Source: Escherichia phage APCEc01. Taken from it: a DNA stretch of 64,000 bases. The notes beneath the pieces were generated by a model. It saw only the letters and a program-made list of their open reading frames with translations. It was not told the origin of the DNA and did not search any database. The stretch lies in sequence record NC_029091.1; one strand, 5' to 3'. This document shows positions 14,541-22,954 of the stretch, one piece after another. A program made the translations under genes and the position numbers. Within the stretch, counting starts at the first letter, position 1, and each line of letters opens with the position of its first letter.

Positions 14541-14614
14541 GGCCCTGTAGCTCAATGGTTAGCAGCAGTCCCCTCATAAGGGAAAGGTTACCAGTTCGAA
14601 TCTGGTCTGGGTCA
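14541..14614 (+). tRNA. tRNA with CAT anticodon (Met, or Ile if C34 is modified)
   Basis: Cloverleaf: acceptor GGCCCTG/CTGGGTC, T-arm ACCAG-TTCGAAT-CTGGT, anticodon loop CTCATAA; no encoded CCA. Confidence 0.75.
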
Positions 14615-14620
14615 TATATT

Positions 14621-14697
<77 letters not shown>

Positions 14698-17747: not shown

Positions 17748-18350
17748 ATGCGAAACCAAAATAATGATATTGACTCAATGTTCGAAGAGTTCCGAGATAA
17801 GGTAAATCCACCTACGTCTTTAGTTGATTCATTACGATATGTTGCAACCGGACGTAAATGGTACTGGTCGTCTTCTTATGAGACTACTGAGAAAACGGCT
17901 AGCCATAGCAGAAAATCTTTATTAGCCCCAGGTATTATGATTCATGATATCGGAGCTATTGCTAAACTAGTTGCAGACCATGATATTAGATTCACCGATT
18001 TCGTTGCTCCTACATGGTCTGTTTGTTGTTTAAACACTGAATGGGAATATATCAGCGAACGCTCTAAAGATTATTATGGTTTTAGAGATAAGCTTCTGAG
18101 GTCTAACATGTTTTATATTGATACAGAAGTTCTGGTCAATAATAAAAAATACTACTTCACTTTAATCGTCGATTCTGAAACTATGTATGAAGGCGGGCCT
18201 TTGCTTAAGAGAGTTGATGCTTTAAGTGCTATTGATGCGCTTTATGAAACTATGGTTGTTAGTCCTAATTTCACTAACAATTTAATCCTTGAGCAATTTA
18301 TTATGGAATGTAGAGAATATGTCAAAGCCAACCCTGTACATGCCAATTAA
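17748..18350 (+). CDS. hypothetical protein; C-terminus has FIMECR motif
   Basis: 200-aa product from ATG after GGAG; ends ...EQFIMECREYVKANPVHAN. Confidence 0.5.
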   Translation: MRNQNNDIDSMFEEFRDKVNPPTSLVDSLRYVATGRKWYWSSSYETTEKTASHSRKSLLAPGIMIHDIGAIAKLVADHDIRFTDFVAPTWSVCCLNTEWEYISERSKDYYGFRDKLLRSNMFYIDTEVLVNNKKYYFTLIVDSETMYEGGPLLKRVDALSAIDALYETMVVSPNFTNNLILEQFIMECREYVKANPVHAN

Positions 18351-18714
18351 GCCCTGGGCATACGAATACAAGCGTAAATTAATCCCAAATGAAGTACTAT
18401 TTGGCCCTATTTTAGCTTTAGCATTTTTAATCTTTATGATTATAGGAGCTGTTTTAGATTCCAATAAAGTTATATCGTCTGATGCAGCATTTTCATTAAT
18501 GTTCGTCGCACCACTTATTGTACCGTTTTTATTAATGCCTATTAATTGGGTAGGATATTGGCACCAAGGCCGTCATCACAGAGCTCGAGTAAGAGAATGG
18601 AAAGTTCAGTGCGCAAAAGCCCAAGCTCAGTATGATGAAGCTGTTAAAAAGTATGAATATGAAGAAGCTATGGAATTCGTTAAGGAAATAAGATGCAAAA
18701 GCCTCAACTCTTAA
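18319..18714 (+). CDS. hypothetical membrane protein
   Basis: 131-aa product with two hydrophobic segments; overlaps the upstream gene end. Confidence 0.45.
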   Translation: MSKPTLYMPIKPWAYEYKRKLIPNEVLFGPILALAFLIFMIIGAVLDSNKVISSDAAFSLMFVAPLIVPFLLMPINWVGYWHQGRHHRARVREWKVQCAKAQAQYDEAVKKYEYEEAMEFVKEIRCKSLNS

Positions 18715-19052
18715 CCGTATGGCCTTCTCTTGGTGAGAACATTCTAATTTTTATTATGAGTATTGGCATGGGATTTGCCTTTGGATTAGTTGGATTTCTT
18801 ATTGACGGCGTTGTGTTAGGATTTATAGGGAACACTGGTGGATTCACAGACCAATGGCAGGACTTACGGTATACCCAAGCCTTTGCATCCATCGCATCAT
18901 TTTGTACTGTAGTCTATTTTTACTACGATTTTATAAACCACAACAAGAAAAATAAAAAGGTTTACGCTTCTCAAATGATTAGTTATAATGAACTCCTAGC
19001 TAGACGTGAAAATGAAACAATCGAAAACTTTATTAAGGAATGTAGAAAATGA
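18693..19052 (+). CDS. hypothetical membrane protein; C-terminal NFIKECR motif
   Basis: 119 aa, hydrophobic N-terminal half, ends ...ETIENFIKECRK. Confidence 0.5.
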   Translation: MQKPQLLTVWPSLGENILIFIMSIGMGFAFGLVGFLIDGVVLGFIGNTGGFTDQWQDLRYTQAFASIASFCTVVYFYYDFINHNKKNKKVYASQMISYNELLARRENETIENFIKECRK

Positions 19053-19354
19053 GTAAGATTATTGAAATTAAAGTACCAGAGTTTAATGATGCCAAATCCG
19101 CTTCAGATGCAATTTATAAACTTCTGAATCAAGCTGAACGTATCGAAGAAGAAGCAACAAAGATCGCAGACCAATATGCCGTATCATTTTCTGTAGGTGA
19201 TTATGGTAGCGGTCGTACTTATTATCCTAAGGGTGAAATCGTATCCCAGTGGATGAAAGATGAAATTGAAAATAATGGCGGCGATGTTAAGCGTGAAGGT
19301 AATGGATACGTTATTACTGAAGGTGCTTGGGTTTCGTCTTCTGCGTTGTGCTAA
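19049..19354 (+). CDS. small protein, tandem paralog A (C-terminal GAWVSSSALC)
   Basis: 101 aa; shares DYGSGRTYYP and GWVxSS..C motifs with the next two ORFs. Confidence 0.5.
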   Translation: MSKIIEIKVPEFNDAKSASDAIYKLLNQAERIEEEATKIADQYAVSFSVGDYGSGRTYYPKGEIVSQWMKDEIENNGGDVKREGNGYVITEGAWVSSSALC

Positions 19355-19363
19355 GGAATCATT

Positions 19364-19636
19364 ATGTCTAAAGAACAAACCGAACTGGCTGAAGCTGTAG
19401 CAAAAATCTATGCAGCTATTGAGGCTGCCAAAGAAATTGCTGATAAACAAAACACAACATTCAACTTGTACCCAGCTTATGGTATGGGTGGAACCTATCA
19501 TTCACCCGGACATCTTAAAGCCGATCTTGAACGTTGTACAAAAAACGGCTATGCTGAATGGGCTGACGTTTACCAATACGACTACAACCTGAGCCTCGAA
19601 ACTGGTGGTTGGGTCGCATCTTCTCACACTTGCTAA
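19364..19636 (+). CDS. small protein, tandem paralog B (C-terminal GGWVASSHTC)
   Basis: 90 aa; gene junction TGCTAAGGAAnCAnTATGTCT identical to paralog A. Confidence 0.5.
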   Translation: MSKEQTELAEAVAKIYAAIEAAKEIADKQNTTFNLYPAYGMGGTYHSPGHLKADLERCTKNGYAEWADVYQYDYNLSLETGGWVASSHTC

Positions 19637-19645
19637 GGAAACAAT

Positions 19646-19843
19646 ATGTCTCGTGAATTAGATTGTGCTGTACGTACGGCAGTAGCTGCTCTGGAAAACC
19701 TGTTCCAAATTGCAACAGAAGAACGCGAAGAAGTTACATTATGGATTGAAGATAACGCAGGTCTGAATCTCCAGGACGCGATCTCATTATCCCACAATAG
19801 TATCACTGTTCAAGGCTGGGTATCATCTAGTTATTCTTGCTAA
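19646..19843 (+). CDS. small protein, tandem paralog C (C-terminal QGWVSSSYSC)
   Basis: 65 aa, same C-terminal motif. Confidence 0.45.
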   Translation: MSRELDCAVRTAVAALENLFQIATEEREEVTLWIEDNAGLNLQDAISLSHNSITVQGWVSSSYSC

Positions 19844-19847
19844 AACA

Positions 19848-19890
19848 GTTTACAACAAGATAGGGCTATGTTATAGTAGTCCTATCAAAA
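19848..19890 (+). promoter_or_regulatory. early promoter with stem-loop, repeat family A
   Basis: GTTTACA at 19848-19854, TATAGT at 19872-19877, palindrome ATAGGGCTAT...ATAGTAGTCCTAT. Confidence 0.6.
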
Positions 19891-19905
19891 CAAATGGAGT
19901 CCACA

Positions 19906-20145
19906 ATGATTTATTACGAAAGTATCGGAACCAAAGTGGTTAGTAAAACCATTACTCGTGAAAAGTTTGCAAAGATATTCGATATGCGTTATAAAAAATC
20001 TGAACACAAAGGCATCCGATTCGAAGATGCGCACTGTACAATTTGCCCTTATAATGAAGACATAAACGGTACAATCGTTCCATTGGTAGAGGCTTCACAT
20101 GATGACCTCTGGGATGAATATAATATCGCATGTCGTGAAATTTAA
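19906..20145 (+). CDS. hypothetical protein
   Basis: 79-aa product from ATG after GGAG. Confidence 0.5.
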   Translation: MIYYESIGTKVVSKTITREKFAKIFDMRYKKSEHKGIRFEDAHCTICPYNEDINGTIVPLVEASHDDLWDEYNIACREI

Positions 20146-20173
20146 GTTAATGAATTAATCCGAGGAAAATATT

Positions 20174-21130
20174 ATGATGTTAGTTATTGGTTCTCGTGCA
20201 CTTCACTATCACGGTCTTATTGATTCTAGCGCTATTAAAAATAGTGATTGGGACTTTATTGCGGACCAAGGTTCTTGGAATGCATTCAAAAATCAAATGA
20301 TGGGTGTATATGTTCACCAAGATAACCCTGATGTCCAAGTTTTCAAATGCTTCCATAATGGACGCGAAACTCATTTTGAAGCATATATTGTTCCGGCAAT
20401 CACTAATGTCCGTGAATTAGTCGGTGAACTCACTCCTGAAGATTTCACGTCTTCTTATGACCTTTTAAAATACGCCAAGAAAAATTTGACTAAAGACCGT
20501 TTGAACGGGTTTTACTGGGCAACTCCTGAGATATGTCTTGCAATTAAGATGTCTCATCGTTTCAAGAAAAATAATCCATTCTTTTTAAAGACTATGAACC
20601 ATATTCAGTATCTTCGTGGTAAAGGTGTTACACTGAACGATGAACTTACTGAAATTATGCTGAAACGCCAGAAAGAAACCTTGAATTATGCTCACCCAGT
20701 TCTTGACACTTCTAAAAGTGCGTTCTTTAAAGATGACATCTATACATATGACCATGATACTATTCATGAAGCCATTGCACTAACAGACCGTCCAGCGTAT
20801 ACATTTTATATGAAAGATGGTTCTGAAGTCATGACCTCACGCGAGAAGTTCGAATCATTACCAGAAATGGTCAAATTGGCCGGCGTATACGAAGAATCAT
20901 GTGTACTAGCGTTAGAACGTTCTCAGATTCCTAATAACTTTGAAATCCATCCACGTGATAGTTTTATGATGGCCCTTGAAAAGGTCTGTACATCAATCAC
21001 ATCAGGATGGTTCCGTGAGTTCGCTTGGGAAAATTATAGCAAAGTAGTAAGTATGTACCAAAGCTTAGGACACGACGATTACGTCAAGCGTTTCAAACAA
21101 AACTTTCATATGGTAAAACCTTTCAAATAA
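20174..21130 (+). CDS. hypothetical protein, possible minimal nucleotidyltransferase fold
   Basis: 318-aa ORF; N-terminal IGSRALHYHGL...DWDFI resembles a G-S...D-x-D motif (weak). Confidence 0.5.
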   Translation: MMLVIGSRALHYHGLIDSSAIKNSDWDFIADQGSWNAFKNQMMGVYVHQDNPDVQVFKCFHNGRETHFEAYIVPAITNVRELVGELTPEDFTSSYDLLKYAKKNLTKDRLNGFYWATPEICLAIKMSHRFKKNNPFFLKTMNHIQYLRGKGVTLNDELTEIMLKRQKETLNYAHPVLDTSKSAFFKDDIYTYDHDTIHEAIALTDRPAYTFYMKDGSEVMTSREKFESLPEMVKLAGVYEESCVLALERSQIPNNFEIHPRDSFMMALEKVCTSITSGWFREFAWENYSKVVSMYQSLGHDDYVKRFKQNFHMVKPFK

Positions 21131-21142
21131 TTTCACAAAACA

Positions 21143-21185
21143 GTTTACAAGGTCTGTAGTTGTTGATACTATAGACCTATCAAAA
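21143..21185 (+). promoter_or_regulatory. early promoter with stem-loop
   Basis: GTTTACA at 21143-21149, TACTAT at 21167-21172, inverted repeat AGGTCT/AGACCT; upstream TTTCACAAAACAGTTTACA is identical to the 12670 promoter. Confidence 0.55.
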
Positions 21186-21210
21186 CAAATGAGTGAATGG
21201 AGATATAAAA

Positions 21211-21411
21211 ATGACTACTTTGAATAAACGTTTCGGTAAAGCTAAACCTGGTTGTGCAGCAGAACGTCGTTATGTTTTCGCTCAGTTAGAAGATGTAGAG
21301 TATCAGATTAATCAAGTTCACATTACTGGCATCGAGCCTATGTGTGGCCTTGAAGCTCTTCGTGAAGTTCGTGATGGGTATCGTCGTGACATCGAAGAAA
21401 TGTCAAAATAA
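21211..21411 (+). CDS. hypothetical protein
   Basis: 66-aa product from ATG after GGAG. Confidence 0.5.
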   Translation: MTTLNKRFGKAKPGCAAERRYVFAQLEDVEYQINQVHITGIEPMCGLEALREVRDGYRRDIEEMSK

Positions 21412-21455
21412 GTGTACAAACTGATAGGACTATGTTATAGTAGTCCTATTAAAAC
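21412..21455 (+). promoter_or_regulatory. early promoter with stem-loop, repeat family A
   Basis: GTGTACA -35, TATAGT at 21436-21441, palindrome ATAGGACTAT...ATAGTAGTCCTAT. Confidence 0.6.
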
Positions 21456-21469
21456 ATGAGGAGAATATT

Positions 21470-21775
21470 ATGAAATTAGGCGAAACCAACCGAATTGGTC
21501 TTTTAACAATATTTGTATCACTTTTTTACGCAGCTCTTTCTGTTGCAGTATTACAAAAGGCTTACAGTATGGATGGTGTTCCTGGTTTTGTATTCTTATC
21601 GCCGTTTTTGCTATTCGTTGGAGCATTGTTATTATATGCCACGACTAGTTTCGACCATAACGTCTGGGTCAATTATAAATGTAAATTGTCTGAAGAAGAA
21701 CACGCAGAAGCTCGTAAAAAAGCTATTGAATCTACCAATCTAGAAAATTTCATTAAAGAATGTCGAGGAAAATAA
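21470..21775 (+). CDS. hypothetical membrane protein; C-terminal NFIKECR motif
   Basis: 101 aa, two hydrophobic segments, ends ...NLENFIKECRGK. Confidence 0.5.
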   Translation: MKLGETNRIGLLTIFVSLFYAALSVAVLQKAYSMDGVPGFVFLSPFLLFVGALLLYATTSFDHNVWVNYKCKLSEEEHAEARKKAIESTNLENFIKECRGK

Positions 21776-21776
21776 T

Positions 21777-22463
21777 ATGAATAGTTCTAAAGTGTTTAAT
21801 AGTCAAGCTCGTGCAGTAGGTGGTTTTGCTCATGCGATTAAAAATGACCAGATTAAAAACGAGCCTATGTTCTTTAATTGCGATTTGAATTTTGCTTTTG
21901 ATAACGGCGGTCCAATTACTCGTAGCTTTATCCAAAATCTCCCTGACGATTGGAAAGACTCGGATGTAGTATTTGATTCACGAGTCCATATGCTGATGCC
22001 TGGTTGGTATCCTGCTATTCCTGGTTATCACCATGATGACGTACCACGCCCGGATATTCCGGTTGGTCAACATTTTATTACTGCAGGACAACCTGACTAT
22101 GACAATCCTCGCTATTTGTCTGAACATATTCTTGGTCTTGTTAACGCTGATGTGTGTCCTACTCATTTTGCAACAGGAACTGCAGAGTTCAGTCAGATTC
22201 CTGATGGCGAACTTATCTATCGCCAGTGGCACAAAGAAGTCCTCGAAAAAATCGAAAAAGGCGAACTAGAGAAATGGGAAGCTCCAGATCGTACTCTTCT
22301 TCAGTTTGATTGGCAAACATGGCACACTGGTTCTCGTGCAATTAGTAACGGATGGCGTTGGTTCGGACGTGTATCTCGTAATACAGACCGAGTTAAAAAG
22401 ATTACCAATGAAATTCGTGTCAATGCCCAAGTTTATCTGGAATTCCCTATGGAAGGATGGTAA
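21777..22463 (+). CDS. hypothetical protein
   Basis: 228-aa ORF, His/Asp-rich (PGYHHDDVP); no confident family assignment. Confidence 0.55.
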   Translation: MNSSKVFNSQARAVGGFAHAIKNDQIKNEPMFFNCDLNFAFDNGGPITRSFIQNLPDDWKDSDVVFDSRVHMLMPGWYPAIPGYHHDDVPRPDIPVGQHFITAGQPDYDNPRYLSEHILGLVNADVCPTHFATGTAEFSQIPDGELIYRQWHKEVLEKIEKGELEKWEAPDRTLLQFDWQTWHTGSRAISNGWRWFGRVSRNTDRVKKITNEIRVNAQVYLEFPMEGW

Positions 22464-22954
22464 TGATTAACAAAACATATTGGTCTAATATAGACGATGG
22501 CAACGAAGGTATTTCATACTATTCAGTAGATTGGACAGGATGTCCATCCTACTTAGTGAAACATATTTGCCAAGAATTTAAAATCGACCAGCCAGCAGGT
22601 ATTATCGTGAACAGATACATTAATGGATATCAACCTATCGATGAAGTAATACGAACAACTCAAGCTGAGCTTGAAAAGTTTTTCAATAAGTGCCAATGGA
22701 TAACAGGATGGATTATATTTGTACCGTCGGTATGGTTTTTTAGTACTAAGGTGAGTTCTTTCGGTTTTGTTGATATTATTGCTATCTTATTAGCATCTGC
22801 TATCGTAAGTATAATTGGCGGTATAATTGGTGGAGGTACTGTAGGCATCATTATTAATCTTGTTAAAAGTAGTTTACAAGAACGTAAAGACAAGATAAAG
22901 GCCAAGAATAATGAAGTTGAACGTTTTATTACCGAATGCAGGAATTTGAGATGA
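22457..22954 (+). CDS. hypothetical membrane protein; C-terminal RFITECR motif
   Basis: 165 aa, hydrophobic central region with GGxIGG repeats, ends ...NEVERFITECRNLR. Confidence 0.5.
   Translation: MVMINKTYWSNIDDGNEGISYYSVDWTGCPSYLVKHICQEFKIDQPAGIIVNRYINGYQPIDEVIRTTQAELEKFFNKCQWITGWIIFVPSVWFFSTKVSSFGFVDIIAILLASAIVSIIGGIIGGGTVGIIINLVKSSLQERKDKIKAKNNEVERFITECRNLR

Follow-up and report, generated by a model that had tools for sequence, protein, structure and literature searches.

Small tail-sharing proteins of Escherichia phage APCEc01 and related viruses are encoded next to a nucleotidyltransferase-like enzyme of probable MenT/AbiEii-type fold

We analysed a stretch of 64,000 nucleotides (nt) from Escherichia phage APCEc01 (sequence record NC_029091.1; here called the window), a coliphage of T4 type that belongs to the RB69-like genus Mosigvirus, and in it three consecutive small open reading frames (ORFs), ORF1, ORF2 and ORF3, that share a C-terminal tail. 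Across the viruses surveyed, genes for such tail proteins lie almost always directly upstream of one conserved gene for a nucleotidyltransferase-like enzyme, and this pairing is found only in viruses; in the window, the enzyme is a 318-amino-acid protein whose gene begins 330 nt after the end of ORF3. The three ORFs, which correspond to RB69ORF139c through 136c, sit in an accessory block flanked by homologs of e.3 and e.2. In T4, e.2 abuts e.3, and the whole accessory block is therefore missing from that phage. The surrounding region (positions 18000-21500) is 99.9% identical to phage vB_EcoM_SCS57.

An earlier note on this DNA, made from the letters alone, had described three plus-strand ORFs of 101, 90 and 65 amino acids between positions 19049 and 19843, and these are confirmed, as is the internal motif that it read in ORF1 and ORF2 (Table 1). 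The predicted ORF1 protein consists of a long helix followed by a small beta sheet, and ORF3 is a shortened paralog that lacks the YG-G-TY loop. The common GWV tail holds for all three C-termini, except that ORF1 reads G-A-W rather than G-W at this point. Within the window, no further ORF has the C-terminal motif of ORF1-3. The two junctions, which had been described as identical at the DNA level, proved to be near-identical instead: the ORF1/ORF2 junction, TGCTAAGGAATCATTATGTCT, and the ORF2/ORF3 junction, TGCTAAGGAAACAATATGTCT, match at 19 of 21 positions.

Table 1. Features at and around the ORF1-3 locus (positions in the window)
Feature	Positions	Strand	Description
ORF1, type 1 (RB69ORF139c)	19049-19354	+	101 amino acids; DYGSGRTY; C-terminus GAWVSSSALC
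ORF2, type 2	19364-19636	+	90 amino acids; AYGMGGTY; C-terminus GGWVASSHTC; phrog_899, 5e-19
ORF3, type 3 (RB69ORF136c, phrog_4882)	19646-19843	+	65 amino acids; C-terminus QGWVSSSYSC
Partner enzyme (RB69ORF134c)	20174-21130	+	318 amino acids; DUF7277 and DUF7275
Invariant tail of ORF1	19328..19351	+	W94-C101
Invariant tail of ORF2	19610..19633	+	W83-C90
Invariant tail of ORF3	19817..19840	+	W58-C65
First junction	19355..19363	+	9 nt; ribosome-binding site TAAGGAA overlapping the stop codon
Second junction	19637..19645	+	9 nt, with ribosome-binding site
T4-type middle-promoter-like motif	18966..18989	+	GCTT N14 TATAAT, 60 nt upstream of ORF1; consensus match only
Hairpin 3' of ORF3	19859..19886	+	stable, 11 bp, no U-tract; -16 kcal/mol, z -4.4
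83-amino-acid ORF (phrog_3723)	19894-20145	+	H-C-x-x-C...C pattern
Small predicted membrane proteins (e.3 homolog and two others)	18693-19052; 21470-21775; ~22456-22953	+	flank the module
tRNA-Met and tRNA-Arg	14541-14697		

Pairwise BLASTP comparisons among the three proteins gave E values of 2e-4, 3e-4 and 1e-3. The phrog_899 hidden Markov model (HMM) matched ORF1 (1.3e-22) as well as ORF2, the phrog_4882 HMM matched ORF3 (7.7e-37), and hhalign aligned the full length of ORF3 when an ORF3-type profile was compared with an ORF1/2-type profile (probability 96.2%, E 2e-9). Judged by these alignments, ORF1-3 are true paralogs at the protein level, and their similarity is not confined to the junction nucleotides. 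The tandem arrangement, the shared motifs and the near-identical junctions had suggested a recent tandem duplication followed by divergence, and the genes might then simply be duplicates drifting apart with no specific function in common. However, separate orthologs of each type are present in Tegunavirus, Karamvirus-like, Klebsiella, Enterobacter and Aeromonas phages. Within the genes, DNA identity is at the level of shuffled controls (182 against a maximum of 179, 142 against 148 and 143 against 144). The junction layout (terminal Cys codon, TAA, GGA(A) ribosome-binding site, 9-nt spacer, ATG) recurs across many unrelated phages, where a gap of exactly 9 nt separates successive tail genes at 41 junctions, more than any other gap length, and the near-identical junction is evidently a functional design that is standard between such genes. 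On these three grounds the duplication does not look recent, and is evidently ancient. The tail, moreover, shows strong purifying conservation in a family of at least 737 clusters, and we give next to no credence to aimless drift of recent copies; of the earlier proposal, the paralogy stands and the recency does not.

Copy number varies among related phages from one to five tail genes, with each type represented by its own orthologs. A Yersinia Tegunavirus carries one ortholog per type plus a fourth gene, JS98-like, Karamvirus-like and Klebsiella phages carry four or five tail genes in tandem, and a Pseudomonas phage carries two. In some isolates, ORF1 or ORF2 is present as a frameshifted or truncated copy without the tail, as in P0013 (RB69ORF139c, 71 amino acids) and P0012 (phage mar005P1, 75 amino acids); such copies may mean that individual paralogs are dispensable, or they may be sequencing errors.

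To follow the tail beyond these relatives, we defined a tail protein as one of fewer than 180 amino acids that ends in W-x(1-2)-[S/A/P]-S-S-x(0-3)-C-COOH and whose gene precedes a DUF7275 gene in the same orientation; ORF1-3 have both properties. An exhaustive profile search returned 737 representatives at 50% clustering, 123 of them at E<=1e-10. The 150 best of these 737 matches are all 68-175 amino acids long, the end of the profile coincides with the end of the protein in nearly all of them, and none is fused to another domain. In an unbiased set of 145 new representatives retrieved by profile, Cys is the very last residue in 135 and the penultimate one in eight more, and 140 have the mid-protein YGMGGTY-type loop. 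In the 135 unrelated Cys-ending members, the tail is close to invariant, with W(-8) in 134, S(-5) in 135, S(-4) in 131 and C(-1) in 135; position -6 is S, A or P, and G-G is common just before the tail Trp. Some bodies have diverged to a weak or zero phrog_899 match, and the tail is still fixed. Tail ORFs taken from genomic loci have a median length of 85 amino acids, a median isoelectric point of 4.4 and a median net charge of -8. Comparison of the small proteins with Pfam, NCBIfam and PADLOC gave nothing, or sub-threshold noise. The sole tail-less homolog of the body (locus L068, 3022-3261; HMM E 1e-11, DYGYGRTYYP loop) ends in ...SRWYPK and may be a decayed copy.

Such short, fixed C-termini invite comparison with lanthipeptides and AviCys peptides of the epidermin type. 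The body would then be a long leader and the eight-residue tail the core of a ribosomally synthesized and posttranslationally modified peptide (RiPP), in which Ser elimination would be followed by closure of a lanthionine- or AviCys-like ring by the terminal Cys, or in which a peptide-nucleotide conjugate would be formed. Both the S-x-x-C-COOH spacing and the G-G before the Trp, which resemble lanthipeptide/AviCys cores and double-glycine leader ends, fit this proposal, as do several precursor-like genes ahead of one enzyme gene. Conservation is nevertheless the reverse of that expected, with an invariant "core" and a variable "leader"; the spacing between Ser and Cys varies (WxxSSC, WxSSSxxC and WxSSSxxxC); an AF2 model places the G-G in a beta turn of the folded domain; and no dehydratase, cyclase, LanD-type decarboxylase, protease or exporter travels with the module. 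The RiPP-like proposal is thus very improbable, and the reversed conservation, together with the missing co-location of dehydratase, cyclase and LanD-type decarboxylase genes, led us to reject the lanthipeptide/AviCys precursor class as the identity of the tail proteins.

In two distant phages, a gene for a protein of about 315 amino acids comes after the small genes, as the enzyme gene does in the window. The linkage of the tail genes to the enzyme gene was then examined in both directions. In the forward test, 67 viral loci were fetched via the large protein; 60 of them contain one to four tail ORFs by the strict motif, and a looser pattern adds four loci. Every tail ORF in this sample lies upstream of the enzyme gene on the same strand: the motif marks 143 of the 1,246 ORFs that precede the enzyme gene in its own orientation and none of the remaining 4,226. 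Consistent with this, clustering of the ORFs across loci showed that only the large-protein and tail-protein families travel together between lineages. The reverse test started from four tail proteins picked by profile; for three of them a DUF7275 gene was located no more than 3 kb away, and for two it starts 4-9 nt downstream. Acinetobacter Twarogvirinae and Phapecoctavirus have the module as well, and the large protein is 48% identical to its Pseudomonas phage copy, compared with 21-28% for the small proteins. Of 50,697 deposited phage genomes, 733 encode the enzyme, and its protein clusters number more than 2,200; the hosts extend from Enterobacteria to Acinetobacter, Pseudomonas, Vibrio and actinobacteria. 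In 185,579 species genomes of bacteria and archaea, it was found only in five contigs of metagenome-assembled genomes, each of which also has tail genes; these contigs are probably phage derived. Beside the remotest homologs of the enzyme (Gordonia, Streptomyces, DSS3_VP1 and Vibrio XZ1), we found no convincing tail ORFs. Directly upstream of the DUF7275 homolog gp205 of Bacillus phage G lies gp204 (locus L079, 3106-3459), an acidic helical protein that ends in ...EEETSSSW, which may be a variant of the tail that lacks Cys.

These data bear on the possibility that the tail proteins act independently in anti-defence or host takeover, as factors such as RNA or DNA mimics or antitoxin mimics directed against host AbiE/MenT-type toxins, which share no more than an island with the enzyme and whose tail is directed at the host, for example in stability, metal binding or recognition of a host factor. 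They are small, acidic and probably early- or middle-expressed proteins of a hyperplastic region, as is typical of phage inhibitors; the block is missing in T4 and hence accessory; and some isolates have frameshifted copies (P0012 and P0013). Against this, tail and enzyme genes remain adjacent in phage lineages with no other synteny in common, their order and strand are fixed, and translational coupling between them is frequent. The module hosts also extend from Enterobacteria to cyanobacterial and Saccharibacteria-binned contigs, and because this host range is so broad, a single host target for the tail is unlikely unless that target is universal. We therefore regard independent host-directed factors as improbable.

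The partner enzyme matches DUF7277 (97.2 bits, N-terminal) and DUF7275 (265.6 bits, C-terminal) in Pfam, where the gathering cut-off is 27 for each, and at E<=1 no other entry of that database was matched, DUF1814 included. Its best structural matches are MenT1, MenT3/TglT and MenT4, and its N-terminal half probably adopts a Pol-beta nucleotidyltransferase fold of the MenT/AbiEii type, followed by a highly conserved helical C-terminal domain. At the sequence level, single-sequence and profile searches of PDB chains yielded no match save a spurious one to PsaB, and matches in BFVD were limited to unnamed or DUF7275 proteins. The latter include DUF7275-domain proteins of 508-571 amino acids in the giant eukaryotic viruses Sylvanvirus and Satyrvirus (A0A3G5AJ90 and A0A3G5AE53), and the enzyme superfamily therefore extends beyond phages. 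The label "prohead assembly scaffold protein" attached to the DUF7275 enzyme in two phages (public records vB_KpnM-VAC36 and vB_EcoM_005) is likely a mis-annotation.

The Pol-beta nucleotidyltransferase signature, G6-S7...D25-x-D27, is invariant in 36 homologs, and in the window protein together with 80 sequences taken from the loci, the sole exception is a change of Asp25 to Glu (L075 and L076). Further residues are conserved across the superfamily (K125, H128, H194, D195, H198, E240, E241, E248 and R249), and in sequence terms K125-x-x-H128 may be the counterpart of MenT motif III; the family-specific C-terminal motifs III and IV of MenT/AbiEii enzymes (K189 and D211 in MenT3) were not found as such in the enzyme. 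A second set of seven residues, R129, R165, H174, C272, S277, F280 and R281, is conserved only alongside tail genes and is lost together in five tail-less outliers, which retain every catalytic-type residue. Candidate identities as an HD domain and as RlaP were rejected, the latter having no PF10127 match at E<=1. The genomic neighbourhood of the enzyme gives hints about its substrate. In at least five independent lineages, a gene for PNKP, Rnl1 or Rnl2 is found within 4 kb, phage G has a poly(A)-polymerase-like gene near its enzyme homolog, and tRNA genes are close by in a Gordonia phage and in the window (positions 14541-14697); the RNA-repair genes are not found in most loci, nor in the APCEc01 module. 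Because RNA-repair, poly(A)-polymerase-like and tRNA genes are nearby, these neighbourhoods hint that the enzyme handles RNA ends.

The phage module resembles several known systems without matching any of them. In type VII toxin-antitoxin systems, the minimal nucleotidyltransferase MntA (about 100 amino acids) oligo-AMPylates HepT on a Tyr hydroxyl. The phage module likewise combines a nucleotidyltransferase with a small partner open to nucleotidylylation on a hydroxyl side chain, but its enzyme has 318 residues and two domains and the candidate acceptor is Ser in a C-terminal tail. A HEPN/MNT identity of the tail proteins was rejected, since the Rx4-6H motif is absent and there is no HEPN match. 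MenT toxins add nucleotides to tRNA 3' ends and are encoded downstream of short partner genes, and Ser/Thr auto-phosphorylation is induced by MenA1, the 68-amino-acid helical partner of MenT1, which reshapes the active site through a helix (PMC7450476, PMC11375011). MenAT and AbiE share with the phage module the Pol-beta nucleotidyltransferase motif and short upstream partner genes on the same strand that are often translationally coupled. In contrast to them, however, the phage enzyme has no Pfam DUF1814 match, bears the distinct and very conserved C-terminal domain DUF7275, and is encoded by lytic phages rather than by cells. It is accompanied by one to five partner genes instead of one, and these partners are unrelated to MenA/AbiEi and have an invariant Cys tail with no counterpart there. 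RlaP (PF10127), an RNA-ligase-associated protein of RNA repair, adds one or two nucleoside monophosphates to damaged RNA 3' ends, and the abstract that describes it names no small tail-bearing partners (PMC12776372). RlaP and the phage enzyme are alike in being Pol-beta-fold nucleotidyltransferases, and phage homologs of the enzyme adjoin PNKP, Rnl1 or Rnl2 in several phages, but the phage enzyme has no PF10127 match and its association with RNA ligases is occasional, not defining.

Our preferred reading, which we hold tentatively and which may well prove wrong, is that the tail proteins are regulators or pseudosubstrates that dock by their shared tail onto a MenT/AbiEii-fold enzyme acting on RNA 3' ends. 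ORF1-3 and the downstream nucleotidyltransferase would then work together as a two-component module, in which the W-x-S-S-S-x-x-Cys tail, with its free carboxylate, would be a common handle onto the enzyme, probably at or near the active-site cleft, and the divergent bodies would give each paralog a separate role. Binding near the active site is favoured because the seven residues track the tail genes and R129 stands directly beside K125 and H128. Arginines of the enzyme could hold the terminal carboxylate, and its His and Cys residues could share a metal with the tail cysteine. The enzyme would most likely add nucleotides to RNA (tRNA) 3' ends, RNA being the most economical guess at its substrate, and the acidic tail proteins would most likely restrain or redirect it, as the MenA/AbiEi partners do MenT/AbiEii, while the tail serines may themselves receive phosphate or nucleotide. 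Two points weigh against the docking model: regulation by itself gives no reason for keeping several distinct paralogs, and the correlation of the seven enzyme residues with the presence of tail genes is confounded by phylogeny.

In an alternative model, the tail proteins are the true substrates and the enzyme O-nucleotidylylates or phosphorylates the tail serines, much as MntA modifies HepT, thereby switching small effectors that have different host targets. The invariant S(-5) and S(-4) and the fixed terminal Cys in more than 130 unrelated members suggest chemistry over mere docking. Several distinct bodies are carried on one tail, with each type conserved across genera, and MenT-type active sites can phosphorylate Ser/Thr beside a bound nucleoside triphosphate (PMC11375011). 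Tail-less homologs of the enzyme, however, keep the catalytic-type residues, so the ancestral substrate was something other than a tail protein and the primary substrate is probably not one either; the neighbouring genes point to RNA ends; and neither a HEPN nor any other known effector domain was found in any tail protein. We consider tail proteins as true substrates possible but rather unlikely. It is decidedly doubtful that the tail is the dedicated substrate of a new MenT-fold protein modification, namely Ser nucleotidylylation or phosphorylation, possibly with a lanthionine-like ring captured by Cys or a peptide-nucleotide conjugate. A gene for a NinI-like/Metallophos Ser/Thr phosphatase and a DprA-like gene lie 2-3 kb upstream of the module in four loci of Pseudomonas and Phapecoctavirus type (L004, L042, L081 and L085), and a protein phosphatase near a possible Ser-modifying system could be relevant.

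The families concerned, phrog_899, phrog_4882, DUF7275 and DUF7277, are catalogue entries without function, of which the window proteins are clear members. The earlier note had accordingly left the function of the triplet blank, which agrees with the catalogues, yet more can now be said, because the genes are obligate neighbours of an enzyme of nucleotidyltransferase fold. A literature search on the ORF1-3 families and the enzyme families found no mention of the genes, the tail or their linkage, and the jumbo-phage survey by Aravind mentions neither the tail genes nor the enzyme. The shared tail, the gene linkage and the MenT-like fold thus appear to be unreported, and the tail proteins and the enzyme together seem to form a two-part phage system not described before. 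In this way, small "ORFan" genes from the hyperplastic regions of T4-like phages are brought into one family, defined by the invariant tail and tied to a nucleotidyltransferase of probable MenT/AbiEii fold, and dozens of hypothetical proteins per phage group become one testable system. If the enzyme does edit tRNA or other RNA 3' ends under the control of the tail proteins, the module would be a viral counterpart of, or a counter-measure to, MenT/AbiE-type immunity and tRNA-targeting defences. If the tail is chemically modified, a new protein modification would be at hand, and if it is the substrate of that modification, large lytic phages would make covalently modified mini-proteins or peptides, in a RiPP-like or protein-nucleotide system.

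Several further features surround the module in the window. The middle-promoter-like motif upstream of ORF1 is also annotated as such in phage SA79RD, and GCTT N13-15 TATAAT occurs 11 times in the whole window against 1.09 expected. The hairpin between the triplet and the enzyme gene carries a terminator annotation in SA79RD and is a possible attenuator or RNA-stability element. Between the hairpin and the enzyme gene lies the 83-amino-acid phrog_3723 ORF, which from its Cys/His pattern may encode a small zinc-binding protein; because it occupies the position between tail genes and enzyme gene in only 12 of 68 loci, it is lineage specific and not part of the module core. The "sulfurtransferase" label on the e.4 homolog in the public record of JK42 is likely a mis-annotation. 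The small predicted membrane proteins that flank the module share a different C-terminal motif, ...(N/S)FI(K/E)ECR(G)K; they make up a further paralogous family of this accessory block in which the C-terminus is fixed.

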